A DNA stretch of 21,199 nt from a virus (taxonomy: Duplodnaviria > Heunggongvirae > Uroviricota > Caudoviricetes), in the IMG/VR virus record IMGVR_UViG_2541047774_000002, one strand, 5' to 3'. Of this stretch, positions 3,252-19,418 are shown piece by piece. The notes beneath the pieces are model-generated. The model was not told where the DNA came from, ran no database searches, and saw only the letters and a list, made by a program, of their open reading frames with translations. The first letter of the stretch is position 1; every line of letters starts with the position of its first letter. The position numbers and the translations under genes were made by a program.

Positions 3252-3455
3252 ATGGCTAATTACAATTCATTAATTCGTCTCTCTGAAGTTCAAAGGCGAA
3301 CTGGTTATAGCAAAGCATGGATTTATCGTCTTATTAGTCAGGGGAGGTTCCCTAAACAGGTAAAAATTGGAAGTCGGGCTATTGCTTTTGTTGAGTCTGA
3401 AATAGATGAATGGATTGAGAAGTGTATATTAGAATCTAGAGACGAGGTGGCCTGA
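3252..3455 (+). CDS. alpA: AlpA-family HTH transcriptional regulator (excisionase-like)
   Basis: 67 aa; LIRLSEVQRRTGYSKAWIYRLISQGRFPKQVKIGSRAIAFVESEIDEWI matches the AlpA/Vis pattern (HTH, then FP-x-P-V-K-I/L-G-x-R-x-x-x-W, then E-x-E-x-W); position after int is typical of P4/PICI-like elements. Confidence 0.8.
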   Translation: MANYNSLIRLSEVQRRTGYSKAWIYRLISQGRFPKQVKIGSRAIAFVESEIDEWIEKCILESRDEVA

Positions 3456-3898: not shown

Positions 3899-4732
3899 AT
3901 GAACATCGAAAAAAGCAGATTAATTTCTGAGGCCGCCCCTCATCTGAACGCCTCTCTGAGCACAATTAACGGTAATGAATTTGCCGCAATTGTCCCGGTT
4001 ATTCCTGGTCATATCGGTGGGCGTGAAACCAATATTGTTAGCGCAAAAGCGTTACACAAAGCGTTGGGCGTGGGAAAAGACTTCTCTACATGGATCACTG
4101 ATCGCATCTCTGAATATGACTTCACCATTGGGCACGATTACTCAGTCCATAAAACTATTTCCCCAAATTTGGGGAAAAGCCCGAATGGCGCGGCTTACAG
4201 CAAGATTAAGCAGTCTGGCAGACCCGGCAAAGACTATCTGTTAAGTGTCGGAATGGCGAAAGAACTGGCAATGATCGAACGCAATGATCAGGGTCGCGCT
4301 ATCCGCCGTTATTTCATCCAGTGCGAGGAAGAATTACAGCGTAGCGTTCCTGAAATCGCCGCCCGCTATCGTCGCCAGCTAAAAGCCCGTATCAGTGCCG
4401 CAAACAACTTTAAGCCAATGTGCGATGCGCTGAATATGGCCCGTGCCGAGCAGGGGAAAACGACGCAGCAACACCACTACACAAACGAGAGCAATATGAT
4501 TTCTCGTATCGTTCTTGGTGGGCTAACTGCTAAGCAGTGGGCGCGGATAAATGGCTATTCTGGCGAACCTCGCGACCATATGAACGCAGAACAACTTGAG
4601 CACCTCTCATATCTCGAAAGCACCAATATCACGTTAATTGATATGGGCATGGAATATGAGCAGCGCAAAGGAGAACTCACCCGCCTGTCGCAACGCTGGC
4701 TCGCTAAGCGTCTGGAGGTGGTCCATGTTTAA
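3899..4732 (+). CDS. phage antirepressor-like protein (Bro-N/KilAC-type, tentative)
   Basis: 277 aa; GGAGACTG RBS; central segment DYLLSVGMAKELAMIERNDQGRAIRRYFIQCEEEL resembles antirepressor/KilA-type DNA-binding proteins; family assignment is from memory. Confidence 0.55.
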   Translation: MNIEKSRLISEAAPHLNASLSTINGNEFAAIVPVIPGHIGGRETNIVSAKALHKALGVGKDFSTWITDRISEYDFTIGHDYSVHKTISPNLGKSPNGAAYSKIKQSGRPGKDYLLSVGMAKELAMIERNDQGRAIRRYFIQCEEELQRSVPEIAARYRRQLKARISAANNFKPMCDALNMARAEQGKTTQQHHYTNESNMISRIVLGGLTAKQWARINGYSGEPRDHMNAEQLEHLSYLESTNITLIDMGMEYEQRKGELTRLSQRWLAKRLEVVHV

Positions 4733-4907
4733 GCCGACAGGAACACCACAACCTCAAAAACGCTACAAGGATGCCCACGGAGCACTCGTTACTGTCGAAA
4801 GCGTGTCTCACAACCGAGTGACGTTTTATCGCGACGGGTATCAATCGCCATGCGTACAACCGCTGGCGCGCTTCATGAAGGAGTTCGCGGAGGTTAACAA
4901 ATGCTAA
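4725..4907 (+). CDS. small hypothetical protein (60 aa)
   Basis: ATG 6 nt after a strong GGAGGTGG SD, overlapping the stop of the preceding gene; the track ORF 4638-4907 probably starts here. Confidence 0.45.
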   Translation: MFKPTGTPQPQKRYKDAHGALVTVESVSHNRVTFYRDGYQSPCVQPLARFMKEFAEVNKC

Positions 4908-5338
4908 CCGTCCAGAAGAAGATATTTTCACTGGCTGGTATGTCGCCAAAATCCAGCAATATGACAGCAAAGTCTGGCATTAATACAGCAGATACAAGCA
5001 AAGTTTATCATTTTCTGGTGGTGGGAGCGGATGCCTTAACTATGTCAGAAATTACGGTCGATGGTGTTAGCGTTGAGAAGGTCGGCGGCTGCGCCAGAGA
5101 ATTTCTGGTCGTAGATGGCTTTCTCTGCTCGCGTAGTGACTCCACAAAAACCTTCGTCCACACGCGCGACGTTAACGAAATGAGCGCGATGTATTGTGCA
5201 TCTGGTGCTTCCAATAGTGAGTTTTCGGAGTCCATAAAAAAGAGCTTGCCGTTATGCGGCAACACGGTTTATGGTTATAAGGCACCTCATAAAACGGGTG
5301 CCGGGTTTCGCAGCCCGGAAATGTACGAGGCGACACAT

Positions 5339-5360
5339 GACGCGCCGAGCGTCTTTTTTT
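5339..5360 (+). terminator. possible rho-independent terminator (GACGC-gccga-GCGTC then TTTTTTT)
   Basis: 5-bp stem, 5-nt loop, 7 T; the stem is short so this is weak. Confidence 0.3.
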
Positions 5361-5562
5361 GTGCCGTTAGCCAGACTCACACTTTTTTCAGTGATGCGGT
5401 TATAATCCGCGTCGCTTGCAAAATTATGGTGGGCTGGACAGGGCAGCCGAAAGGCTGGCCGGTTTCCTTGTACGCCGGTACTGCGAACTCTGTTCAGTCC
5501 ACCACCAGCGAGTTTCGCAGCTCCGGTGGTGGGAAGAATTCCCAGTACAAGGAGGCTGCCAC

Positions 5563-5757
5563 ATGCTGGCTACTACCCCTACCCAAAAACCGCAATTTAT
5601 CTGGATTATCGCCGCAGTTCGCCGCGATTGCCCGACAATTACCGCCAAAATTCATCATATTGCTGCCGAGTCTGAACGCGATGCTCGCCGTTCTCTGGTG
5701 CGCGATCACGTCTGCTTTTTTGCTGGTCGTATCCGCATGGAGGTGGCACATGATTAA
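5563..5757 (+). CDS. small hypothetical protein (64 aa)
   Basis: ATG preceded by a near-consensus SD AAGGAGG at 5549-5555; first gene of a translationally coupled chain that runs to the primase; function unknown. Confidence 0.5.
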   Translation: MLATTPTQKPQFIWIIAAVRRDCPTITAKIHHIAAESERDARRSLVRDHVCFFAGRIRMEVAHD

Positions 5758-5968
5758 AACCTACGATGTGCATATGGATCCCCTCGAACGCACAAGCCAG
5801 ATCATCACACTGACAGAAGTGATTAATGACATTCTGGTGAGCAACTCTCCCTCACGAGACGAAAAACTGAAGGCGTTACTCGCGATATTGGATCTCGCCG
5901 TTCGTGACGTTCATTTCCTGCTGGAAGGTGGCGAAATGCCAGGAAAAACGGGGGCAACCAATGAATAA
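5750..5968 (+). CDS. hypothetical protein (72 aa)
   Basis: ATG overlaps the upstream stop (ATGATTAA); GGAGG upstream; this is the 3' segment of the 355-aa track ORF, whose upstream part I reject. Confidence 0.5.
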   Translation: MIKTYDVHMDPLERTSQIITLTEVINDILVSNSPSRDEKLKALLAILDLAVRDVHFLLEGGEMPGKTGATNE

Positions 5969-6155
5969 CTCAATTAATGCCCCTCGACTTACGTCCGCAC
6001 TTCAATTAATCGAGCAAGCAGCGGCTGTCCTGGTTGCTGTCAGTCTTTCGGCTGAAGAAATGGACGCTGCTGATGTCGTGGATGCGATTAAAGCGTGCTC
6101 ATCTTTGGTTAACGATGCTCGTGCAGAGCTGGTAATTCTTGGGGGTGAAAAATGA
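5961..6155 (+). CDS. hypothetical protein (64 aa)
   Basis: ATG overlapping the upstream stop (ATGAATAA); alternative start at 5904 in the track. Confidence 0.45.
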   Translation: MNNSINAPRLTSALQLIEQAAAVLVAVSLSAEEMDAADVVDAIKACSSLVNDARAELVILGGEK

Positions 6156-6415
6156 ATATCAACTTAATTTATCGTCATCCGTGTGAGCTGGAAATTGAAT
6201 CATTGCTGAGCCGTGAAGAGCCATATCCAGACACATTCACTCTTGCAGATCGCACGACTGAACGGCTTACCAGAGCGCGCACAGGTCTGGTTCATGTGAT
6301 GAATGAGATTCTTCCATCGGTGGGAGGGGAACAGGCGACAGTAATCACTAGCTGGCTACAAAAAGTTACCTCTCTGATAGATATCAGTTTAATCGATGCG
6401 GAGAGTGCGAAATGA
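6152..6415 (+). CDS. hypothetical protein (87 aa)
   Basis: ATGA start/stop overlap with the upstream gene; acidic protein. Confidence 0.55.
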   Translation: MNINLIYRHPCELEIESLLSREEPYPDTFTLADRTTERLTRARTGLVHVMNEILPSVGGEQATVITSWLQKVTSLIDISLIDAESAK

Positions 6416-7580: not shown

Positions 7581-7944
7581 AAATGCAGAAATGGCGCTTA
7601 GCTCCGCAATCGGAGAGCAGGTGGCAAAGATTGCTGGTGCTGTGTGGATTCATAACCTTCATTCTACTGGTGAAGAGAAAATGGCAATTCAGACGCCAGA
7701 GGGACGCACCATTACTACATCTCTGAAGCCGTCAGATGTTTGTGATCTGATTTGCGCATTCATGTACCCAGCAATGAGGACTGCCCACGGCGATAAGTGG
7801 AAACTTGCGACAACCGCTGAATTTGATATGTGGCTAAACAATGATGGCATGCTGACTGATTACGGAATAACCAAGTGGCAGATGCTGGTTAGCCATATCG
7901 CAAACGCTATAGACCACGTGGGGTACGGTGATGCGAAACATTGA
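7573..7944 (+). CDS. hypothetical protein (123 aa)
   Basis: Overlaps both neighbours; same operon, immediately upstream of the primase. Confidence 0.6.
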   Translation: MRENAEMALSSAIGEQVAKIAGAVWIHNLHSTGEEKMAIQTPEGRTITTSLKPSDVCDLICAFMYPAMRTAHGDKWKLATTAEFDMWLNNDGMLTDYGITKWQMLVSHIANAIDHVGYGDAKH

Positions 7945-10687
7945 TCTTATCCGTCAGGTTATCAGTGCGTCTGAAAACAACTGGCCTCATGTGCTGGGCT
8001 GCCTGAACATAAATGTCCCTGACTCTCCGCGCCGTCATGCTCCCTGCCCTGCATGTGGGGGCAAAGATCGATTCCGGTTCGATGACAACGGGCGCGGTAG
8101 CTTCATCTGTAATCAGTGCGGCGCTGGTGATGGGCTGGATTTAATTAAACGCGTAAATAACTGCGACACAACAGAGGCGGCGCTTCTTGCCGCTGATGTT
8201 CTGGGTATTGATTACCGGACAACGGAAACACCAGAAGCCACCAGCCAGAAACGGGAACAACTGGAAACCGAGCGCCAGCGACGCGAACAGGAGCGCCTGA
8301 AAAGGGCAGAGAAGGATGAACAACAAAGACGGGATACGTTTTCCCGTCAGTTTGATGACATGCGCAGAAAGGCTGTAAACGGCAAATCTGATTATCTGGT
8401 TGCGAAAGGGGTAGGTGATTTTACATTCCCCGTGTTGCCCGATGGATCTCTGTTGCTGGCGCTGGTGGATAAATCCGGCGCAGTCACAGCAGCACAGACA
8501 ATTACCTCACATGGTGAAAAAAGACTCCTGACAGGTTCAGCAAAGCGGGGGGCATATCACGCCATAAACGCACCAGAAACAACACAGAGCATCTTAATCG
8601 CAGAAGGGCTGGCAACGGCATTATCTGCCCATTTAATTCGTCCAGAGGCGCTGACAGTGGCGGCGATTGATGCCGGGAACCTGTTATATGTCGCCCAGGT
8701 ACTGCGGGATAAATTTCCTTCAGCACAAATTATCATTGCTGCGGATAACGACCACAGCGAAGGAAGACAAAACACGGGGAGAATAGCAGCAGAAAAAGCA
8801 GCTTTATCTGTTTCTGGATGGGTGGCATTACCCCCGACAGATCACAAAGCAGACTGGAATGATTACCACCAAAAACACGGCATTAAATGCGCCACAGAAG
8901 CGTTCAATAAGTCAATGTACCAACCACAGGGTAATGGCGTGAAACAGGAGCCACAGACCATTGAGGGAAGCGATTTTAAGGTTATGGATACCGACCCACT
9001 GAAACCAAGAATAGAAAGCCGCGAGGATGGTATTTATTGGGTATCTCCGAGAGCTGACAGTCAGAGTGGAGAAATCATCAATAACGAAAGCTGGTTATGT
9101 TCTCCGTTAAGCGTTATCGGTACTGGCAGAGACGATAAAGACCAGTATCTCATTCTTCGCTGGCTGTCGTTTGGTTCTGAAACGCCGACAACCGCTGCCA
9201 TTCCACTGGCTGATATTGGTGAACGTGAAGGATGGCGCACACTTAAAGCTGGTGGGGTAAATGTCACGACCAAAAGCAGCCTCAGAGCAATACTGGCAGA
9301 CTGGCTACAACGCAGTGGCTCTCGTGAATTGTGGCGTGTTGCTCATGCCACTGGCTGGCAATGCGGAGCGTACATCATGCCTGATGGGGAAATCATCGGA
9401 ACACCTGAAAATCCTGTGCTGTTCAGCGGGAGAAGCTCAGCCGCAGCCGGATATACCGTCTCAGGGAGCGCGAAAAGCTGGCGTGATAACGTGGCGCGTC
9501 TGGCCTTTGGTAACTATTCAATGATGACCGGGATCGGCGCAGCACTGGCAGCGCCATTGATTGGGCTGGTGGGCGCTGACGGGTTCGGCATTCATTTCTA
9601 TGAGCAGTCGAGCGCAGGTAAGACCACCACGGCAAACGTGGCGAGCAGCTTATACGGCAACCCTGATTTACTGCGGCTGACGTGGTACGGAACCGCGCTG
9701 GGGCTGGCAAATGAAGCTGCCGCCCACAATGACGGACTAATGCCGCTTGATGAAGTTGGTCAGGGCGCTGATCCTGTCAGTGTTTCACAGTCTGCCTATG
9801 CGTTATTTAACGGTGTAGGGAAACTGCAAGGCGCTAAAGATGGTGGAAACCGGGATCTAAAACGCTGGCGTACAGTGGCAATCAGCACCGGAGAAATGGA
9901 TTTAGAAACATTTATCGCTACTTCCGGGCGAAAAACCAAAGCCGGGCAACTGGTGCGACTGCTGAATATTCCGTTGAGTAAAGCAGTACGCTTTCACGAT
10001 TACCAGAACGGAAAACAGCACGCAGACGCACTGAAAGACGCTTACCAGCATCACCACGGCGCAGCCGGGCGTGAGTGGATTAAATGGCTGACAGACCACC
10101 AGCAACAGGCAATTAAAACTGTTCGTGACTGCGAAAGCAGATGGAGAAGTCTGATCCCATCCGATTATGGTGAGCAGGTTCACCGTGTAGCCGCGCGATT
10201 TGCCATTCTGGAGGCCGCATTGCTGTTAGGCGAGGTTGTAACAGGCTGGGATGCTCAGACATGCCGTGATGCGATACAGCACAGCTATAACGCATGGTTG
10301 CGCGAGTTCGGCACAGGTAACAAAGAGCATCAGCAGATTATTGAACAAACGGAGGCATTTCTTAATGCCTATGGGCTTAGCCGTTTTGCACCATTTCCAT
10401 ACAGCCCGGCAGATTTGCCCATCAAAGATTTAGCCGGATACCGTCAGCGTGGAGAACATGACGAAAGCCCAATGATTTTCTACACATTCCCGGCCACATT
10501 TGAAAAGGAGATCGCATGTGGTTTCAACGCAAAACAGTTTGCTGAAGTGTTGAAAAAAGCCGGGATGCTAACCCCACCAAACAGCGGTCGTGGATACCAA
10601 AGAAAATCACCACGTATTCAGGGACGACAAATAAACGTTTATGTACTCAATTACCAGCCAGGAGATTATAACTCATCTGAAGAATGA
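7928..10687 (+). CDS. replicative primase-helicase (zinc-ribbon + Toprim + P-loop NTPase), P4-alpha/PICI-Pri-like
   Basis: 919 aa; N-terminal Cys4 motif CPACGG...CNQCG; Toprim-like acidic motif IIIAADNDHSEG; Walker A EQSSAGKTT and Walker-B-like GLMPLDEVGQ in the C-terminal half; followed directly by iterons. Confidence 0.9.
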   Translation: MMRNIDLIRQVISASENNWPHVLGCLNINVPDSPRRHAPCPACGGKDRFRFDDNGRGSFICNQCGAGDGLDLIKRVNNCDTTEAALLAADVLGIDYRTTETPEATSQKREQLETERQRREQERLKRAEKDEQQRRDTFSRQFDDMRRKAVNGKSDYLVAKGVGDFTFPVLPDGSLLLALVDKSGAVTAAQTITSHGEKRLLTGSAKRGAYHAINAPETTQSILIAEGLATALSAHLIRPEALTVAAIDAGNLLYVAQVLRDKFPSAQIIIAADNDHSEGRQNTGRIAAEKAALSVSGWVALPPTDHKADWNDYHQKHGIKCATEAFNKSMYQPQGNGVKQEPQTIEGSDFKVMDTDPLKPRIESREDGIYWVSPRADSQSGEIINNESWLCSPLSVIGTGRDDKDQYLILRWLSFGSETPTTAAIPLADIGEREGWRTLKAGGVNVTTKSSLRAILADWLQRSGSRELWRVAHATGWQCGAYIMPDGEIIGTPENPVLFSGRSSAAAGYTVSGSAKSWRDNVARLAFGNYSMMTGIGAALAAPLIGLVGADGFGIHFYEQSSAGKTTTANVASSLYGNPDLLRLTWYGTALGLANEAAAHNDGLMPLDEVGQGADPVSVSQSAYALFNGVGKLQGAKDGGNRDLKRWRTVAISTGEMDLETFIATSGRKTKAGQLVRLLNIPLSKAVRFHDYQNGKQHADALKDAYQHHHGAAGREWIKWLTDHQQQAIKTVRDCESRWRSLIPSDYGEQVHRVAARFAILEAALLLGEVVTGWDAQTCRDAIQHSYNAWLREFGTGNKEHQQIIEQTEAFLNAYGLSRFAPFPYSPADLPIKDLAGYRQRGEHDESPMIFYTFPATFEKEIACGFNAKQFAEVLKKAGMLTPPNSGRGYQRKSPRIQGRQINVYVLNYQPGDYNSSEE

Positions 10688-10712: not shown

Positions 10713-10823
10713 GTTGGTTCAGTTGGTTCAGTTGGTTCAATTTGTAAATAGTATTGTTTTATAAGGATTTTATTCTTTTTATTGAACCAACACTGAACCA
10801 ACAACACGGTATTTTGAACCAAC
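10713..10823. repeat. iteron cluster / putative replication origin: 3 tandem GTTGGTTCA (10713-10739), AT-rich spacer, 3 inverted TGAACCAAC (10783-10791, 10794-10802, 10815-10823)
   Basis: Repeats counted directly; iterons flanking an AT-rich core directly downstream of a primase-helicase gene is standard satellite/plasmid origin architecture. Confidence 0.6.
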
Positions 10824-10873
10824 ACAATGTGACTGAATTGATGCGCACAACACCTGGCTGGCATCAGAGAGTG

Positions 10874-10950
10874 TTTTACGAGACTTTCGTAAAATCCTGT
10901 GTACAAGGGCGTGACGTTTTTGAAAGTGGGCACTACGAAATTTTCGTAGT
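10874..10950. promoter_or_regulatory. two related palindromes: TTTTACGA-n5-TCGTAAAA (10874-10894) and perfect 19-bp ACTACGAAA-T-TTTCGTAGT (10932-10950); candidate operator pair
   Basis: Shared TACGA(A/G)A...TTTCGTA half-sites about 40 bp apart; neither is followed by a T-run, so they are more likely protein-binding sites than terminators. Confidence 0.35.
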
Positions 10951-11143
10951 TCAAAAAACAGCCTCTGAGAAGTTGTTATGCCTGTTCAGCAAACCATCCA
11001 CATAGCTGATCGCGAATCAAATTACCAATGGAGCCAGAAGCAAGGGCAGAACTGAAAAGCGCCTGCCGTGAAGAGTAATGCGACACCATAAATATAGTTT
11101 TTAGAGTCCATAAAAAACCTGTCAAAACCTGACACACAGAACG

Positions 11144-11177
11144 ATGCCACCAGCTACTGAGCGGTGGCATTTTTTTG
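11144..11177 (+). terminator. rho-independent terminator (ATGCCACC-loop-GGTGGCAT then TTTTTT)
   Basis: Perfect 8-bp stem, 11-nt loop, 6-7 T on the + strand; separates the replication module from the downstream operon. Confidence 0.6.
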
Positions 11178-11271
11178 TGCTATTTGTTTCATATTTTGCA
11201 ATTACGATGATGAATATTGCGATTTGTGAAACTATAATAACTGTTGTTTTATACAGTTCTAAGGGGGCGTT

Positions 11272-11449: not shown

Positions 11450-11911
11450 ATGGAACTAAAATTTATTGATAACCCTGTGCGATTACAGGCCTTTCTTAAC
11501 GAGCCAGGCAATACCGAAAATATTGTTGAGCCGGGGCACACGTACTACATCAAGCCTGATGCGGTATATCTCGGCATCTACGAAGGATTAGTGCTGGCTG
11601 GCGTTCATGAAGTGCGTAACTTCTGGCATAGCGTTGTTGAATGCCATGCGGTGTACGACCCCGGATTCCGTGGTGAATATGCACTGCAAGGGCATCGATT
11701 ATTCTGCAAATGGCTTCTCGAAAACTCACCATTCCTTAACAGCATCACTATGGTTCCTGACACCACGAAATATGGACGGGCAATTATCCGTTTGCTTGGC
11801 GCTACCCGTGTTGGTCACCTTGATGATGCTTATATCAGATGTGGTAAACCCGTCGGCGTAACGCTTTATCAGTTAACTCGGCAACAATATAAGGAATTCA
11901 GCGAATGTTAA
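11450..11911 (+). CDS. hypothetical protein (153 aa); possible accessory protein of an ejection-protein module (P22 gp14-like position)
   Basis: Normal globular composition; stop overlaps the start of the 699-aa gene (ATGTTAA); the positional assignment is inference only. Confidence 0.7.
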   Translation: MELKFIDNPVRLQAFLNEPGNTENIVEPGHTYYIKPDAVYLGIYEGLVLAGVHEVRNFWHSVVECHAVYDPGFRGEYALQGHRLFCKWLLENSPFLNSITMVPDTTKYGRAIIRLLGATRVGHLDDAYIRCGKPVGVTLYQLTRQQYKEFSEC

Positions 11912-14004
11912 TTACCCATATAGCTCATAAACATCTCAATCGTGCCGTATACGAAAAAGGCGGTGATGGTGGTGCCTCTAAAGCTCAGGCGAAGGCCCAG
12001 CAGCAGGCAATTGATTTGCAGCGCGAGCAGTGGAATACGGTGATGAATAATCTCAAGCCGTATGCAGAAGTCGGATTGCCTGCTTTACAACAACTGCAAG
12101 GACTGATGACTCTGGAAGGGCAGAATAAAGCCGCGAATGATTTCTTTGGTTCTGGTTTATATAAAACACAGGCAGATCAGGCCCGTTATCAGAACCTTGT
12201 CTCAGCAGAAGCTACCGGGGGGCTTGGCTCAACAGCTACCAGTAACCAGTTATCTTCCATTGCGCCCATGCTTTATAACAATTGGCTCAGTGGGCAAATG
12301 CAAAATTATGGAAACCTGCTAAATGTCGGGATGAATGCGGCATCAGGGCAGGCAACAGCAGGGCAAAACTACGCCAATAATACCGGGCAACTCTTGCAGG
12401 GGCTTGGCGCTATTCGTGCAGGTCAGGCGCAGCAGCCATCCAGTCTTGCGCGTGGTATTGGTGGGGCGGCATCAGGCGCTTTAGCGGGTGCGCAACTTGG
12501 TTCCGTTGTTCCGGGTATAGGTAATGTCGCCGGGGCTATTGGTGGTGGGCTTATTGGTCTTGTTGGGGGGGCTTGGATTCTAATGGCGACATGGCAACTT
12601 GGCGGGCTGCCTAGCATGGCACCGCAAAATGATAATGCTCCTCGTTCTTCCGTTCCTCAGCCTGTGCAGTATCAGCAGCACCCAAACGTAGGTTTAATGG
12701 CGCTACAGGGGCTAAGAGGCGTTGCTGAGATTAATCAGCAGGCACGTCAACAACAGCGTAAAGCAGAGTTTCAGAAAGCATATGCCGGGGCTTTTGAGTC
12801 TGGAGACAGAAACAAAATGCGCAGTCTTATTTCTGAGTATCCAGAAGAATTTGAAAGCGTTCAGAAAGGGATGGGCTTTATTGATGACGACCAGAGAAAT
12901 TCTATTGGTCATCTTGCGACTAGTGCTCAAATCGCATCTTCGCTCGGAACTGGGGCATTTGGAAAATTCATAGCAGATAACGAAGATGAAATGCGTCGCT
13001 TGGGAATTTCTCCTGAGTCTGTTGCCGAAATGCATGTTAATGATCCACAGGGATTCCAGCGGCTTGCTGGTAGTATGGCACTGTTTTCTCTCGGTCATGA
13101 GAAGTATTTCGATATCAAAGATCAAATGGAAGGTCGGGATATTGAGCGTGGCAAGTTGGCAGAGACAATCCGCAGCAATCAGGCTGGCGAAGCACTTCAG
13201 GCGAGAGGGCAGGATATTAGCCGAGCAAATGCGTTAACGTCAGCATATGCACCAACAGCAGCAATGCAGAATTACAATCAGTACGCTCAAATGTTAAAGG
13301 CGGATCCAGAGGGGGCGGCGGCATTTGCGGCAGCGGCTGGAATTAATACAAACGCCAAAAAATTAATGAGTGTTAGAGAAAACGATGATGGCACTGTCAC
13401 AAAATACTACACAGACGGAAGTGAAGAGCAGGGAAAACTAAACCAGCCAATATCTGGAGATGGGTTTCGTCCAATAGCTTTGCCAACAGCCCAAAAGATC
13501 ATGGAAAAGTCGCCAGAAGGGGCTAAAAAAGCTGCTGGATTTGCATACAGGGTTAGGGATGCTCTTGATTCAATAGATACACTGAAAGACCAGCTTAGCC
13601 CACAGCGAGTGGCGATCATTAATAATGCTTTGGGTAATGGGACGCTGGCTAACTTAACGCTCAGCCCAACAGAGCAGCAATACGTTGTTAATGCTAATGA
13701 CGCAATAATGGCAATACTCCGTCAGGAAACAGGGGCAGCTATCGCACCTGCTGAAATGTCAAAATATTATCAAATGTATTTCCCTCAGCCTGGCGACTCC
13801 ACAAAAACCATTGATACCAAGCGCCGGAAGATGGAAAACCAGTTCAATTCGCTGAAAGCTGCTTCTGGTCGAGCTTATGATGCTTTGCGGGTTATTTCAG
13901 CAGTTGACAGAGGAACTTCTTCTTCGTCGCAGACATTGCCGCAATCTGAGCAGGTATCACAGCCAGCAGCCAGCAGTAACTTTTCTTCACTATGGGGTGA
14001 TTAA
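11905..14004 (+). CDS. large low-complexity protein (699 aa); candidate phage ejection / internal-virion (DNA-transfer) protein
   Basis: N-terminal EKGGDGG followed by a Q/A-rich coiled-coil-like stretch; Q/N/G/A-rich low-complexity region; glycine-zipper hydrophobic segment GSVVPGIGNVAGAIGGGLIGLVGGAWILMATW; essentially no Cys; translationally coupled on both sides. Confidence 0.75.
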   Translation: MLITHIAHKHLNRAVYEKGGDGGASKAQAKAQQQAIDLQREQWNTVMNNLKPYAEVGLPALQQLQGLMTLEGQNKAANDFFGSGLYKTQADQARYQNLVSAEATGGLGSTATSNQLSSIAPMLYNNWLSGQMQNYGNLLNVGMNAASGQATAGQNYANNTGQLLQGLGAIRAGQAQQPSSLARGIGGAASGALAGAQLGSVVPGIGNVAGAIGGGLIGLVGGAWILMATWQLGGLPSMAPQNDNAPRSSVPQPVQYQQHPNVGLMALQGLRGVAEINQQARQQQRKAEFQKAYAGAFESGDRNKMRSLISEYPEEFESVQKGMGFIDDDQRNSIGHLATSAQIASSLGTGAFGKFIADNEDEMRRLGISPESVAEMHVNDPQGFQRLAGSMALFSLGHEKYFDIKDQMEGRDIERGKLAETIRSNQAGEALQARGQDISRANALTSAYAPTAAMQNYNQYAQMLKADPEGAAAFAAAAGINTNAKKLMSVRENDDGTVTKYYTDGSEEQGKLNQPISGDGFRPIALPTAQKIMEKSPEGAKKAAGFAYRVRDALDSIDTLKDQLSPQRVAIINNALGNGTLANLTLSPTEQQYVVNANDAIMAILRQETGAAIAPAEMSKYYQMYFPQPGDSTKTIDTKRRKMENQFNSLKAASGRAYDALRVISAVDRGTSSSSQTLPQSEQVSQPAASSNFSSLWGD

Positions 14005-16109
14005 TGGCTAAAGCATGGAAAGATGTTATCGCCTCTCCACAGTATCAGGCGTTAGCACCAGAACAAAAAGCGCAGGCTCAGGAGCAATACTTCAATGAAG
14101 TCGTTGCCCCGCAAGCCGGAGAAAGTGTAGAGCAGGCTAAGCAGGCTTTTTATGCTGCCTATCCACTACCATCAACGAATGAAATAGACCGATCCCAATC
14201 AGCAACTCAAAATATTCAACATACATCATCTGATAATTCTCTTGCGTCAGGGTATGCAAAGTTAGCTACTCAGCAAAGAGAGGGGCTTGAGCGTTCAGCA
14301 GAACAGGGAGCCAGTCTTGGGGCTGCGATGCGCGATGCTATAACAGGCGAAAGCCGAATGACTCCAGAGATGGAGAGACTGCAAAATGTCACCTCTGCCC
14401 CAGAATTGAACTCACTAAGCATGGATGCCCTAAAGGCTGGATGGTCTCAACTTTTCGGCTCTGACGCGTCTCAGGAAAAGATTCTTCAGGGAATGGGGGC
14501 GACATTAAGGCAGGATGAGAAGGGGAATACTATCGTTTCTCTGCCATCAGGTGATTATGCCCTGAACAAGCCGGGTTTATCACCGCAAGACCTGACTTCG
14601 TTTCTTGCTAATGCGTTGGCGTTTACACCAGTGGGCAGGGCTGGAACGGTGCTTGGTGCCATAGGAAAATCAGCAGCTACAGATTTAGCACTACAGGGAG
14701 CCACCAGCCTTGCTGGTGGAGAAGATATTGATCCGTTACAAACGGTAATTTCTGCTGGCATTGGTGGTATTGGTAAGGGGCTGGAAAATACAGCGAGTGC
14801 GGTTTCGAGGGCTGTTCGTGGTGATATGTCGCCTGAAGCAAAGGCTGCTGTCGACTTTGCATCGGAAAGAAATCTGCCGTTAATGACCAGTGACATGCTG
14901 AAAGATAAAACCTTTATGCAGAGTCAGGCTCAGACATTAGGCGAAAGAGTTCCTTTTTTTGGAACCGGTAAGAATCGGCTGAATCAACAACAAGCACGAG
15001 AAAATTTAGTCAGAACATTTAGCGATGGTCTGGGTGGCATTTCTGATAAACAGCTTTATGAATCTGCGACTAAAGGGCAACAAAAATTCATTGAGGCAGC
15101 AGGAAAGCGATATAACCGCATAATTGACGCTATGGGGGATACCCCTGTCGATCTCTCAAACACGGTAAAAGCTATCGACAATCAGATTGCCGTGTTAAGC
15201 CGCCCGGGCAAATCTCAGGATAGAGCCGCGGTAAAAGTCTTGCAGCAATTTAAAGACGATATCACCAGCGGACCAAATGACCTGCGTCTGGCGAGGGAAA
15301 ACAGAACCGATCTTCGAAAGCGATTTATGGCGTCATCTGACACTGTTGATAAAGATACGCTCCAGAAAGCCAGCGATATTATCTACAAGGCATATACGGC
15401 GGATATGAAAAAAGCCGTAGCCAAAAATCTTGGAGCAGACGAAGCCATTAATATGGCAAGGGTTGATCGCTCATGGTCTAAATTCAATGACATGATGGGA
15501 AGAACGCGCGTTCAAAAGGCAATAGCCAGCGGCAAGGCCACGCCTGAGGATGTAACAAAACTCGTTTTTAGCCAAAGCCCATCAGAACGTTCTCAGCTTT
15601 ACAGGCTTCTGGATGACAATGGTAGGCAAAACGCACGAGCAGCCATAGTTCAGAATGCTGTAGATAAGGCGACTGATCCGTCTGGAAATATCAGTGTTGA
15701 GAAGTTTATTAATGCGTTACACCGGAACAGGAAGCAATCAGCAACTTTCTTTAAAGGCGTACATGGAAAGGAACTGGACGGCGTTATTAAATACCTCAAC
15801 GATACAAGACACGCGGCAAAAGCGAACGTTCAAAACTTAAATGGTCAGCAGCTTTATGGATTGTTAGTTGGTGGTGGCATCATAAACGCAGCAGTATTAG
15901 CGGGGATGCTAAAAACGGCTGCGTTTGTTGTTCCTGCTGCTGGTGCCGTAGGCGGAGCAGCGAAGGCATACGAAAGCCCTGTTATACGAAATGCCTTGTT
16001 ACGTCTGGCAAATACGCCAAAAGGTAGCACAGCATATGACAGAGCGATCAGTACGGTCACACAATCGCTCACCAGAGTCGCACAGGCATCACAAAAAGAA
16101 GCTCAATAA
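14004..16109 (+). CDS. large low-complexity protein (701 aa); candidate phage ejection / internal-virion protein
   Basis: TAATG overlap with the upstream gene; A/Q/K/S/G-rich, largely helical-looking; C-terminal Gly/Ala-rich hydrophobic segment LLVGGGIINAAVLAGMLKTAAFVVPAAGAVGGAAKA; no Cys; followed by a terminator. Confidence 0.75.
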   Translation: MAKAWKDVIASPQYQALAPEQKAQAQEQYFNEVVAPQAGESVEQAKQAFYAAYPLPSTNEIDRSQSATQNIQHTSSDNSLASGYAKLATQQREGLERSAEQGASLGAAMRDAITGESRMTPEMERLQNVTSAPELNSLSMDALKAGWSQLFGSDASQEKILQGMGATLRQDEKGNTIVSLPSGDYALNKPGLSPQDLTSFLANALAFTPVGRAGTVLGAIGKSAATDLALQGATSLAGGEDIDPLQTVISAGIGGIGKGLENTASAVSRAVRGDMSPEAKAAVDFASERNLPLMTSDMLKDKTFMQSQAQTLGERVPFFGTGKNRLNQQQARENLVRTFSDGLGGISDKQLYESATKGQQKFIEAAGKRYNRIIDAMGDTPVDLSNTVKAIDNQIAVLSRPGKSQDRAAVKVLQQFKDDITSGPNDLRLARENRTDLRKRFMASSDTVDKDTLQKASDIIYKAYTADMKKAVAKNLGADEAINMARVDRSWSKFNDMMGRTRVQKAIASGKATPEDVTKLVFSQSPSERSQLYRLLDDNGRQNARAAIVQNAVDKATDPSGNISVEKFINALHRNRKQSATFFKGVHGKELDGVIKYLNDTRHAAKANVQNLNGQQLYGLLVGGGIINAAVLAGMLKTAAFVVPAAGAVGGAAKAYESPVIRNALLRLANTPKGSTAYDRAISTVTQSLTRVAQASQKEAQ

Positions 16110-16540: not shown

Positions 16541-16966
16541 ATGGAATTACAGGACTGGCGAAAAGAACCTCGTAAAAACTATTCGAATGAATTCAAACTT
16601 CGTATGGTGGAACTGGCATCACAACCTGGAGCTTGTGTTGCACAGATTGCACGTGAAAATGGCGTCAATGATAATGTTATTTTCAAATGGCTCAGGCTCT
16701 GGCAGAACGAAGGGCGTGTTTCGCGGCGTCTTCCGGTAACGACCTCTTCTGACACTGGCGTTGAATTATTACCTGTAGAAATAACGCCGGATGAGCAGAA
16801 AGAACCTGTGGCGGCCATTGCGCCGTCTTTATCCACTTCCACTCAGACCAGAGTCAGTGCCAGTTCCTGCAAGGTGGAATTCCGTCACGGTAACATGACG
16901 CTGGAAAATCCATCGCCAGAGCTGCTCACAGTGTTGATCCGTGAACTGACCGGGAGGGGAAGATGA
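16541..16966 (+). CDS. IS66-family accessory protein TnpA (orf1)
   Basis: 141 aa; N-terminal HTH-like region; stop overlaps the tnpB start (ATGA). Confidence 0.85.
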   Translation: MELQDWRKEPRKNYSNEFKLRMVELASQPGACVAQIARENGVNDNVIFKWLRLWQNEGRVSRRLPVTTSSDTGVELLPVEITPDEQKEPVAAIAPSLSTSTQTRVSASSCKVEFRHGNMTLENPSPELLTVLIRELTGRGR

Positions 16967-17313
16967 TCTCACTCCCATCAGGTACCCGTATCTGGCTCGT
17001 TGCCGGCGTTACCGATATGCGTAAATCCTTCAACGGACTGGGAGAACAGGTACAACATGTGCTGAATGATAATCCCTTCTCCGGTCACCTGTTTATCTTC
17101 CGTGGCCGACGGGGTGACACCGTCAAAATTCTTTGGGCTGATGCTGATGGTCTGTGCCTGTTCACCAAACGCCTGGAGGAAGGCCAGTTTATCTGGCCTG
17201 CGGTACGTGACGGCAAGGTATCCATTACCCGCTCGCAACTGGCAATGCTCCTCGATAAGCTGGACTGGCGTCAGCCAAAAACATCCAGCCGTAACTCACT
17301 GACAATGTTGTAA
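16963..17313 (+). CDS. IS66-family Orf2 / TnpB
   Basis: 116 aa; sequence recognised as the IS66 Orf2 family (LPSGTRIWLVAGVTDMRKSFNGL...); size and position typical. Confidence 0.9.
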   Translation: MISLPSGTRIWLVAGVTDMRKSFNGLGEQVQHVLNDNPFSGHLFIFRGRRGDTVKILWADADGLCLFTKRLEEGQFIWPAVRDGKVSITRSQLAMLLDKLDWRQPKTSSRNSLTML

Positions 17314-17343
17314 AAAACTCCTGACCGCATTATAAAAACGGTC

Positions 17344-18957
17344 ATGAGTCAGAAATACCTCATTCGCATCGCAGAGCTGGAAAGGTTGCTCTCTGAGCAG
17401 GCTGAAGCCCTCCGTCAGAAAGACCAGCAACTGAGTCTGGTTGAAGAGACGGAAGCCTTCCTGCGCTCTGCACTGACACGTGCCGAAGAAAAGATCGAAG
17501 AAGATGAACGGGAAATAGAACATCTGCGGGCTCAGATAGAAAAACTGCGCCGGATGCTGTTCGGTACCCGTTCTGAAAAACTGCGTCGTGAAGTTGAACT
17601 GGCTGAGGCTCTGCTGAAACAACGTGAACAGGACAGCGATCGTTACAGTGGGCGGGAAGACGATCCTCAGGTTCCCCGCCAGTTGCGACAGTCGCGCCAT
17701 CGTCGTCCGTTACCGGCACACCTTCCCCGTGAAATACACCGCCTGGAGCCAGAAGAAAGCTGTTGCCCGGAGTGTGGCGGTGAGCTGGATTATCTGGGGG
17801 AAGTCAGCGCTGAACAGCTGGAACTGGTGAGCAGTGCCCTGAAAGTGATCCGCACAGAACGGGTAAAAAAAGCCTGTACAAAATGTGACTGTATTGTTGA
17901 AGCACCGGCGCCGTCCCGCCCGATAGAGCGTGGTATCGCGGGCCCCGGATTACTTGCCCGCGTGTTAACGGGAAAATACTGCGAACATCTGCCACTGTAT
18001 CGTCAGAGTGAAATCTTTGCCCGCCAGGGTGTCGAACTGAGCCGGGCCTTACTCTCCAACTGGGTTGACGCGTACTGCCAGTTAATGACACCGGTGAATG
18101 ATGCCCTGTACCGTTATGTAATGAACACCCGCAAGGTTCACACTGATGACACACCGGTAAAGGTACTGGCACCGGGTCAGAAAAAGGCGAAAACAGGGCG
18201 TATCTGGACGTATGTCCGGGATGATCGCAATGTGGGTTCGTCATCTCCTCCAGCGGTCTGGTTCGCGTACTCGCCGAACCGGCAGGGGAAACACCCGGAG
18301 CAACACCTCCGCCCCTTCCGGGGTATCCTGCAGGCGGATGCGTTCACAGGTTACGACAGGTTGTTCAGTGCAGAACGTGAAGGTGGTGCACTGACAGAAG
18401 TTGCGTGCTGGGCCCATGCCCGGCGAAAAATCCACGATGTATACATCAGCAGCAAAAGTGCGACGGCAGAAGAAGCCCTGAAGCGAATCAGTGAACTGTA
18501 CGCCATCGAGGATGAAATACGGGGATTACCGGAGTCAGAGCGTCTTGCCGTCAGGCAGCAGCGAAGCAAAGTGTTACTGACGTCGCTGCATGAATGGATG
18601 GTGGAGAAGAATGGTACGCTGTCGAAAAAATCCAGACTGGGCGAAGCGTTCAGCTATGTACTGAATCAGTGGGATGCCCTCTGTTATTACAGTGATGACG
18701 GTCTGGCGGAGGCGGATAATAATGCTGCGGAAAGAGCGCTTCGTGCAGTCTGTCTCGGAAAGAAAAACTTTATGTTCTTTGGCAGCGATCACGGCGGCGA
18801 GCGTGGAGCACTGTTGTACGGGCTGATCGGCACCTGCCGTCTGAACGGTATCGATCCGGAAGCGTATCTGCGCCATATCCTGAGCGTACTGCCGGAATGG
18901 CCTTCCAACCGAGTTGACGAACTCCTGCCATGGAACGTAGTACTCACCAATAAATAA
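17344..18957 (+). CDS. IS66-family transposase TnpC
   Basis: 537 aa; N-terminal coiled-coil/leucine-zipper region; zinc-finger CCPECGG...CTKCD; C-terminal DDE-type catalytic region; stop abuts the right inverted repeat. Confidence 0.9.
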   Translation: MSQKYLIRIAELERLLSEQAEALRQKDQQLSLVEETEAFLRSALTRAEEKIEEDEREIEHLRAQIEKLRRMLFGTRSEKLRREVELAEALLKQREQDSDRYSGREDDPQVPRQLRQSRHRRPLPAHLPREIHRLEPEESCCPECGGELDYLGEVSAEQLELVSSALKVIRTERVKKACTKCDCIVEAPAPSRPIERGIAGPGLLARVLTGKYCEHLPLYRQSEIFARQGVELSRALLSNWVDAYCQLMTPVNDALYRYVMNTRKVHTDDTPVKVLAPGQKKAKTGRIWTYVRDDRNVGSSSPPAVWFAYSPNRQGKHPEQHLRPFRGILQADAFTGYDRLFSAEREGGALTEVACWAHARRKIHDVYISSKSATAEEALKRISELYAIEDEIRGLPESERLAVRQQRSKVLLTSLHEWMVEKNGTLSKKSRLGEAFSYVLNQWDALCYYSDDGLAEADNNAAERALRAVCLGKKNFMFFGSDHGGERGALLYGLIGTCRLNGIDPEAYLRHILSVLPEWPSNRVDELLPWNVVLTNK

Positions 18958-19037: not shown

Positions 19038-19418
19038 TTGTTTAGAATGGCAATCATCATATATCCAAGACATGGCATTTGGTACATAGCTTGGGTCGGG
19101 ATTTCAAATCCGATCCCCGTTGATGGGGCCGTTACAGTACGCGCATATCCGCTTTATGTGAAACAGGAAGATTTTTCTGATATCACTGCCACAGCAAAAC
19201 ACCAATTTCGAGACAAGTACGCGCGCGAGGGGTATCAGTTGCAAAAAATTTTGCAACTACGTCCGACCAGTATGCACACGATGGCGGGGGGATACCATAA
19301 AACTGTTCTCTACATGAGACAGAGTGGTGGTGATGTGTTGATTATCGACGTATATGCGCACAGGACGCGCTATGACGATGTTTTATGCGGGTACACCAAT
19401 CACATGTATCTGGTGTGA
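19038..19418 (+). CDS. questionable hypothetical ORF (126 aa)
   Basis: Track ORF only; no clear SD; its 5' part overlaps the reconstructed upstream region of the IS-interrupted membrane gene on the opposite strand; may be a gene fragment or non-coding. Confidence 0.25.
   Translation: MFRMAIIIYPRHGIWYIAWVGISNPIPVDGAVTVRAYPLYVKQEDFSDITATAKHQFRDKYAREGYQLQKILQLRPTSMHTMAGGYHKTVLYMRQSGGDVLIIDVYAHRTRYDDVLCGYTNHMYLV

Follow-up and report, generated by a model that had tools for sequence, protein, structure and literature searches.

The interval at positions 4908 to 5562 of a 21,199-nucleotide (nt) stretch of Caudoviricetes DNA (IMG/VR record IMGVR_UViG_2541047774_000002; hereafter, the window) very probably represents the immunity switch of a P4-like satellite island, of the type of the phage-inducible chromosomal islands (PICIs), located at a tRNA-Thr gene. 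This reading rests on two small-RNA families and their structures, on the complementarity and covariation of an antisense loop and its targets, on a conserved promoter, on a reading frame that stays open across the RNAs and on the homology of the first downstream gene to Icd and Kil proteins. A first-pass annotation of the same DNA had proposed a P4-family CI/C4 immunity RNA between the regulatory genes and the primase operon, and this proposal is borne out by full-length C4 and isrK matches, a conserved geometry and covarying targets. The system is of a known kind, typified by CI/seqA of phage P4, C4 of phage P1 and IsrK, and has already been noted in Gram-negative PICIs; new here are its own loop specificity and a variant in which the eta-like open reading frame (ORF) is out of frame with icd.

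An Rfam scan, the check suggested for the C4/CI and isrK families, matched both models in full and well above their gathering scores. The isrK-type RNA lies at 5282-5359 (RF01394; 69 bits against a gathering score of 50) and the C4/CI-type antisense RNA at 5422-5509 (RF01695; 81.1 bits against 45, model positions 1-87 of 87), both on the plus strand, as are all features below unless stated otherwise. The first of these is the equivalent of the c4-a1b1 motif and, in P4, of seqA together with terminator t1, and is built of two 5' hairpins, an upstream antisense target and an intrinsic terminator, with a promoter directly upstream. The terminator, equivalent to P4 t1, is the hairpin plus T7 at 5339-5360 that had been noticed in the first pass (stem 5339-5353, GACGC-GCCGA-GCGTC). 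The separate c4-a1b1 model (RF03163) scores 22.5 bits against a gathering score of 46.7 in the window (5269-5321) and is above its cutoff in two homologous loci. Weinberg et al. described a c4 motif and a two-hairpin c4-a1b1 motif, the latter coinciding with the isrK hairpins (PMC2864571 supplement); Hershko-Shalev et al. described IsrK as a structural homologue of P4 seqA with a processed RNA of about 80 nt downstream (PMC4825925); and profiles of C4 and isrK have been reported to detect relatives of CI and seqA in Gram-negative PICIs (PMC10111431). In the C4 RNA, a closing stem (5427-5443 with 5488-5504) encloses a GNRA hairpin, CAGCC-GAAA-GGCTG, and a target-recognition hairpin (5458-5479, loop 5463-5474) that carries the antisense segment UCCUUGUAC at 5465-5473. 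The GNRA hairpin had been recognized before, at about 5431-5444; it is found some 13 nt further right, at 5444-5457. The 3' arm of the C4 RNA ends in ACCACCAG (5500-5507).

The homologous set comprised 19 loci of other Enterobacteriaceae, retrieved via their Icd-like gene, and the RNA alignment held 23 sequences, 22 of them distinct. As had been suggested, we looked for conservation of structure across these homologues, and found the six helices of isrK and C4 jointly to be 99% paired, with compensatory changes at 20 pairs. The isrK helices are 97-98% paired, with compensatory changes, the C4 closing stem is 99.5% paired and both enclosed hairpins are 100% paired; in the GNRA hairpin, all five pairs (5/5) have changed on both sides. 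Downstream of C4, the leader hairpin formed by CCACCACC (5499-5506) and GGTGGTGG (5526-5533), with a 3-bp inner helix, was correctly described in the first pass; it is paired in 100% of the 22 distinct sequences, with six pairs changed on both sides. Its CCACCACC arm doubles as the 3' arm of the C4 closing stem, so that only one of the two structures can form at a time. The folding of 5270-5580 is far stronger than that of shuffled sequences (z = -6.84), whereas 4908-5246 gives no folding signal (z = -0.45) and remains without an Rfam match when the threshold is relaxed. Only about 280 nt (roughly 5282-5562) are thus structured, and not the 650 bp of candidate RNA region first proposed, the left half of which differs between species: 4940-5216 is non-homologous from one species to another and varies in length by hundreds of nucleotides, while the flanking DUF4222 gene and promoter are conserved.

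The promoter of the immunity transcript, P_isrK, has a -35 element TTGCCG at 5247-5252, a 17-bp spacer, a -10 element TATGGT at 5270-5275 and a predicted start at about 5282. Its hexamers and spacing are kept in the 19 loci and in P4, where it aligns with TTGCCT-N18-TATAGT, and the string AAAAAAG(G/A)GC-TTGCCG-N17-TATGGT-N6 stands before isrK position 1 in nearly all loci. We therefore predict that 5247-5275 acts as a constitutive promoter of the type of P4 PLE. An inverted repeat, TTGCCGTTATGCGGCAA (5246-5262), overlaps the -35 element, and an A-tract motif, GAGTCCATAAAAAA (5228-5241), lies directly 5' of it. The first pass had pointed out a perfect -10 hexamer, the TATAAT at 5401-5406, with a weak -35. 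The sequence is present, but its role as the main promoter is not sustained: it is not called by a promoter scan, has no -35 element, is kept in about half of the homologues and lies in a segment that is absent from 6 of the 22 distinct aligned sequences. It forms part of the TTATAAT loop of a hairpin (5390-5416) with moderate covariation (80% paired versus 68% in shuffles; 17 double-change cells versus 8.4). A second exact copy of GAGTCCATAAAAAA occurs at 11104-11117, between the origin-like repeats and the P22-type late genes described below; GTTTT precedes both copies, and the second is followed by a palindromic CCTGTCAAAACCTGACA, also found within variable segments of further loci, with a terminator-like hairpin beyond it (about 11143-11178).

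Two sites complementary to the C4 loop lie on the same transcript: an upstream site, GTACGAGG (5323-5330), 8 nt before the terminator stem and resembling b1 or seqA, and a downstream site, GTACAAGGA (5545-5553), resembling b2 or seqC and overlapping the AAGGAGG Shine-Dalgarno sequence (5549-5555) that the first pass had noted ahead of the icd ATG at 5563. Loop positions 5466-5473 pair with the upstream site in 96% of alignment cells, compared with 60% in shuffles, with a covariation of 0.925 compared with 0.224; loop positions 5465-5473 pair with the downstream site in 87.9% of cells, compared with 59.6%, with 54 double-change cells compared with 18.8. In neither case did any of 500 shuffles reach the observed value, and controls in which the partner was slid by one to three columns paired in only 31-57% of cells. 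The loop and both targets change in concert, as in the combination of CCGAUAAC with GUUAUCGG and GUUGUCGG or of UCUGUGGAA with UUCCACAGA and UCCACAG. This covariation indicates that the antisense pairing is under selection, and the upstream and downstream sites are the counterparts of a1/b1 and a2/b2 of P1 and of seqA and seqC of P4. A second antisense contact, between GGCAGCC (5443-5449) and GGCTGCC (5554-5560), was considered and rejected, the stem varying freely while GAGGCTGC is invariant; a fourth GTACAAGG, at 10901, was discounted too, as its occurrence does not exceed chance and it lacks a Shine-Dalgarno context.

There are at least 10 loop/target specificities among the 22 distinct sequences. 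A comparison of eight E. coli copies of the island found variability of 1-5% in the flanking genes, compared with 37% in isrK, 90% in the spacer, 51% in C4 and 45% in the leader; with a ninth, more diverged E. coli locus (L005) included, the copies carry four specificities. To judge from this pattern, the module behaves as an exchangeable immunity-specificity cassette, and the swapping of specificities in this family mirrors the heteroimmunity of P1 and P7. These loci form a natural series of matched loop/target triplets, with near-identical flanks, that could serve to examine the diversification of antisense specificities and the ways in which satellites escape cross-repression. Sequences of this kind are widespread: 2739 of 5426 complete E. 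coli genomes match at least part of 4725-5600, mostly the isrK-C4 portion, and 480 match at least 80% of it.

The gene that follows the leader encodes a 64-amino-acid (aa) Icd/Kil-like protein (5563-5757; NF033153, 71.7 bits) with 44% identity to P4 Kil (E = 4e-11), and is predicted to be the first gene under the control of the switch. In all 19 related loci (19/19) and in P4, isrK and C4 lie upstream of icd in identical geometry. The P4 immunity region (PLE - seqA/t1 - cI - seqC - kil/eta) has the same order and spacing of parts; Rfam places isrK at 8692-8615 and C4 at 8507-8420 of P4, upstream of kil, and, as in the window, the CI loop has complementarity both to a site that precedes t1 and to one on the kil Shine-Dalgarno sequence. 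In both, a long ORF coupled to an upstream alpA-type gene spans the module and a primase operon lies downstream. The window differs from P4 in its loop specificity (CCUUGUAC versus CCUGUGAA), in a distance of 140 nt rather than 185 nt between isrK and C4, in a long ORF that is out of frame with icd and fused to the frame of the next gene, in three extra genes between alpA and the module (a 143-aa ORF, antA and DUF4222), and in having P22-type genes in place of sid, delta and psu, none of which is found within the window. The immI region of P1 and P7 (c4 - icd - ant) is of the same family, RF01695, and shares the logic of a1/b1 and a2/b2 sites, in which the icd ribosome-binding site carries the downstream target; the P1-like phages D6 and RCS47 match window positions 5265-5587 at about 69% identity. 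However, in P1 the controlled gene is the antirepressor that follows icd, whereas the AntA/AntB gene of the window precedes the module, and the operon under control leads to the primase. P1 also adds control of the promoter by the C1 repressor, and no such operator was identified in the window.

We infer the RNA processing, the mechanism of termination and the translational override from P4, P1 and Gifsy-1. Our statements on P4 draw on PMC10111431 and PMC4825925, with background from Forti 1999 and Briani 2000. In the quiescent state, the constitutive promoter (-35 at 5247, -10 at 5270) would start transcripts at about 5282, many of which would end at the terminator at 5339-5360 and yield an isrK-type RNA of about 78 nt. 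Transcripts that read through would carry the C4/CI RNA (5422-5509), which would be cut out as a stable RNA; by analogy, a species of about 77 to 80 nt may be released from the leader by RNase P. The loop of the second C4 hairpin (5465-5473) would then base-pair with both target sites on transcripts of its own operon as these are being made. At 5323-5330, pairing would favour termination at the nearby terminator and would also limit the output of C4, while pairing at 5545-5553 would mask the icd ribosome-binding site, and the untranslated RNA would be terminated, leaving the small genes and the primase silent. On induction, transcription would come from the alpA-antA-DUF4222 operon, and ribosomes would enter the ORF at 4901 by coupling; as they translated through isrK, C4 and the icd region, they would prevent the RNA structures and termination, such that the replication genes would be turned on despite immunity. 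This override is modelled on eta of P4, which is coupled to an upstream alpA-type gene and whose translation from the upstream promoter prevents termination (Forti et al. 1999, as cited in PMC10111431); Kil is described there as the short form, translated from the internal promoter.

An alternative is that the module acts as a trigger and not as a lock, by the logic of Gifsy-1 IsrK: the isrK RNA, acting in trans or by soaking up C4, would turn on icd and the genes downstream. We consider this rather unlikely as the principal function. The match to the isrK model is complete, and the C4 loop is matched by the upstream site just as it is by the downstream one, so that free isrK RNA could titrate C4. 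In Gifsy-1, providing IsrK in trans switches on translation of the ORF downstream and of the antirepressor (PMC4825925), and the Weinberg supplement (PMC2864571) cites a proposal that a1/b1 compete with a2/b2. The likeness to Gifsy-1 IsrK/STnc1160 extends to a leaky-terminator RNA of the isrK type, then a processed RNA of about 80 nt with an overlapping translated ORF that is conserved in nucleotide but not in amino-acid sequence (PMC4825925). There, however, the downstream cargo is the antirepressor anrP, the effect shown is activation by IsrK in trans, and neither an Icd-like gene nor a primase operon is described. The synteny of the window, with alpA upstream and an Icd/Kil gene followed by a primase operon downstream, is that of P4, in which CI together with seqA reportedly enhances termination at t1 (Briani et al., 2000). 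Moreover, the activator reading uses identical parts and is compatible with the immunity switch proposed here.

A further alternative is that the region mainly encodes a functional Ash/Eta protein (PF10554, a domain of the 'Bro network') and that the RNA matches are secondary to coding constraint. The ORF concerned, the P4 eta analogue, has 355 aa (4901-5968) and is annotated in RefSeq as 'ash family protein'; it matches Pfam Phage_ASH with 99.2 bits against a gathering score of 26, over aa 124-232. Its start overlaps the stop of DUF4222 (ATGCTAA; stop at 4905-4907), and in every homologue, too, the start either overlaps the preceding gene's stop or directly adjoins it. The frame is fixed as well as open: from isrK position 1 to the icd ATG it is free of stops in 19/19 loci, where the other two frames have one to six stops; the distances between isrK and C4 (140 nt in the window, 98, 101, 125 and 128 nt elsewhere and 185 nt in P4) are always 2 modulo 3, and a 42-nt deletion in one E. 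coli copy leaves the frame intact. In P4, too, the long ORF of the eta frame is open across the module, in a frame fixed relative to isrK and C4; the alignment of the 355-aa ORF with it covers aa 116-220. In addition, an N-terminal motif, xAVQxKxFxLAG, recurs in several loci (by eye), and third codon positions hold a surplus of the variable sites in 4908-5048 (10/16).

Nevertheless, we regard a mainly protein-coding role as quite improbable. The Phage_ASH match corresponds to nt 5270-5596 and so coincides exactly with the translated promoter, isrK, C4 and leader, which means that it is no proof of a folded protein domain. The compensatory stem changes (5/5 pairs in the GNRA hairpin) rewrite the encoded residues, indicating that selection conserves the base pairs and not the amino acids. 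The N-terminal 123 aa match no Pfam or PHROG family, are not homologous between species and were rejected as an independent protein, having only 38 clusters of close relatives with variable ends (130-216 aa). The C-terminal continuation depends on the lineage, the ORF being in frame with icd in 12 of the 19 loci and out of frame in 7. The first-pass view that the interval holds no credible protein thus needs qualification: the ORF is open in all homologues, with a fixed frame and a coupled start, yet its Ash match is a translated RNA module. A conserved long frame would have refuted the first-pass proposal had conserved structure been lacking; frame and RNA structure are both conserved, as they are in P4 eta/cI. 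In two species (L014:1371-1868 and L016:1570-2115), a real-looking gene of 165-181 aa with the motif xAVQSKGxPxAG lies between DUF4222 and the eta-like ORF; the N-terminal motif is common to that gene and the start of the window ORF, which suggests that the window lineage may have kept only its first codons.

Several points weigh against the immunity-switch reading. The window ORF extends across the variable segment and the promoter, continues over isrK, C4 and the icd region, and then enters the frame of a 72-aa gene, but it reads icd 1 nt out of frame, unlike P4 eta/kil and 12 of the 19 homologues. This is due to a spacer between the Shine-Dalgarno sequence and the ATG that is 1 nt shorter in the window: the distance from C4 to the ATG is 141 nt (0 modulo 3) here, whereas the 12 in-frame loci have 139, 142 or 145 nt (1 modulo 3). 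Ribosomes could still translate across the region, though the product would differ. Four aligned sequences pair with the downstream site one position out of register, which lowers its score. The upstream site may promote termination, as in the P4 view, or serve as a decoy that relieves repression, as in the P1/Gifsy-1 view. The TATAAT hairpin is possibly a second promoter or an RNA element. Finally, the transcript ends, processing and termination are all predictions from sequence. As regards the frame, the alternative frame across icd is free of stops in six of the seven loci of the out-of-frame lineages (the exception being L019). Such an open frame would be expected if ribosomes must translate past a terminator inside the icd region.

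These relations are not apparent from current annotation. The NCBI Prokaryotic Genome Annotation Pipeline (PGAP) labels the locus, in the window and in homologues (L004, L005), variously as a 355-aa 'ash family protein', as an 'ash family protein' pseudogene plus a separate Icd-like coding sequence, or as a 290-aa 'Icd-like protein', and none of those RefSeq annotations of the locus has a noncoding-RNA feature. RefSeq thus gives just an 'ash family protein' or a long 'Icd-like protein' coding sequence where the functional units are two small RNAs, their targets and a 64-aa gene. The 72-aa gene at 5750-5968, in frame with the 355-aa ORF, has its own ATG and no assigned function, and its RefSeq neighbours have separate annotations.

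The left half of the interval, inside the eta-like ORF, may have a different role. On the minus strand, 5049-5155 is a 107-nt fragment homologous to nt 268-374 of P22 gene 3, which encodes the small terminase; it is 86.9% identical to the P22 sequence (E = 3e-28) and 87.8% identical to that of an E. coli phage. Its start falls exactly at the 22-bp site annotated as pac in P22, and it includes a pac-like 28-mer, GAAGGTTTTTGTGGAGTCACTACGCGAG (5128-5155, minus strand), with 6 mismatches to P22. Together with the P22-type ejection genes of the island, the fragment and the related 28-mers make a role as packaging signal plausible. We tentatively propose, although we hold it to be somewhat less than an even prospect, that about 5040-5246 is the packaging signal of the family, a swappable slot for mimics of P22-like pac sites, and that these islands of Enterobacteriaceae would be satellites of headful-packaging P22-like phages, bringing their own ejection proteins. 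PICIs that carry the pac or cos site of their helper are already known (PMC6092414), and full-text literature searches found no pairing of a satellite with a P22-like helper that uses such a packaging strategy.

It is also possible, with a chance approaching one in two, that the fragment is an inert remnant left behind when the island recombined with a P22-like prophage, and no packaging signal. The pac core is just 16/22 identical to that of P22 (the 28-mer is 22/28 identical to phage Bas106, counted by eye), and no phage in the phage collection has the exact core variant of the island. The attB site of P22 lies in the same tRNA-Thr region as the island; with that region common to both, contact and recombination are likely. 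Against a scar, the fragment starts exactly at the pac site, and all of the diverged E. coli copies that were compared (8/8) retain it. The 107-nt fragment is missing from other island lineages, which carry between one and three short pac-like 28-mers at the corresponding position, on the plus strand (L011:2071-2158, L012:2114-2141, L013:1843-1870 and L005:1982-2009), and the density of such 28-mers in the 450 nt that precede isrK is 36 times that in the rest of the loci. The island units are also nearer to the pac core of E. coli P22-like phages (GAAGGTTTTTCTGACGTCAC) than to that of Salmonella P22, and the fragment exists as two alleles over the same 107 nt that match different phage terS alleles, one with 87-88% identity to P22 and APC_JM3.2 and the other with 91.6% to Bas106 and IME10. 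Variable sites in the fragment favour third codon positions of the terS frame (10/20; small numbers), which fits exchange with phage genes. The pseudo-pac pattern of PMC10996546 is matched at 16 of 17 positions, although the pattern with one mismatch also matches five other places in the window.

A minus-strand ORF at 5008-5265 (85 aa) was rejected as a remnant of the small terminase: it gave no BLASTP alignment to P22-like small terminases and no PHROG match, and the terminase-like reading lies in another frame, which ends at a stop after about 43 codons. A further pac-like 28-mer, GAAGATTTTTCTGATATCACTGCCACAG, with 9 mismatches to P22 pac, occurs at 19167-19194 on the plus strand, to the right of the IS66 element described below and inside an ORF without a family match. 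If the pac-like element is functional, a common island of extraintestinal pathogenic E. coli at thrW would be tied to P22-like helper phages, which would explain its spread.

The wider setting is consistent with a satellite island. The window belongs to an E. coli chromosomal island, with 100% identity over 4700-6200 to strain 582 and 99.9% to NC101, and the insertion adjoins proA and the tRNA-Thr gene (1369-1441). The genes on the left side of the island are all on the plus strand: an integrase adjoining the tRNA gene (1610-2824), an AlpA-type regulator (3252-3455; PF05930), the 143-aa ORF, the AntA/AntB antirepressor (3899-4732) and DUF4222 (4725-4907). After the module, a chain of small genes extends from the Icd-like gene (5563-5757) to a primase with Zn-ribbon, Toprim and DUF927 domains (7931-10687), also on the plus strand. 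On sequence grounds, the layout is that of a Gram-negative PICI or of the P4 left operon. It resembles EcCICFT073-type islands (PMC6092414, PMC10111431) in its tRNA-associated integrase, alpA, Bro/Ant zone, primase with an iteron-rich probable origin and captured late genes; for such islands, C4 and isrK matches in the Bro zone have been reported and the use of helper packaging sites is established. The described E. coli PICIs have lambdoid cos sites, whereas the window has a candidate headful pac site of P22-like podoviruses and P22-type ejection proteins.

The primase is followed, in order, by iteron-like repeats, P22-type ejection-protein genes and an IS66 element. The repeats (10715-10830), consisting of GGTTCAGTTGGTTCAGTTGGTTCA and three copies of TGAACCAACAC, flank an AT-rich stretch directly 3' of the primase and are probably the replication origin of the island. 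The ejection genes (11450-16109), the only virion genes seen in the window, comprise DUF2824, a 699-aa protein with P22_gp7 and injectosome-translocase (gp20) parts and a 701-aa ORF without a Pfam match. The gp7-like and gp20-like genes are separate in NC101 and joined in the window, whose 699-aa version looks like a fusion or a rearranged allele. A search for attR with the 3' end of the tRNA gave no site within the window, and the right end of the island also lies outside it. A complete IS66-family element (16541-18957; HTH_Tnp_1 ORF, TnpB_IS66 and DDE transposase) stands 3' of the ejection genes and does not occur at that position in NC101, where the island adjoins the vat toxin island.

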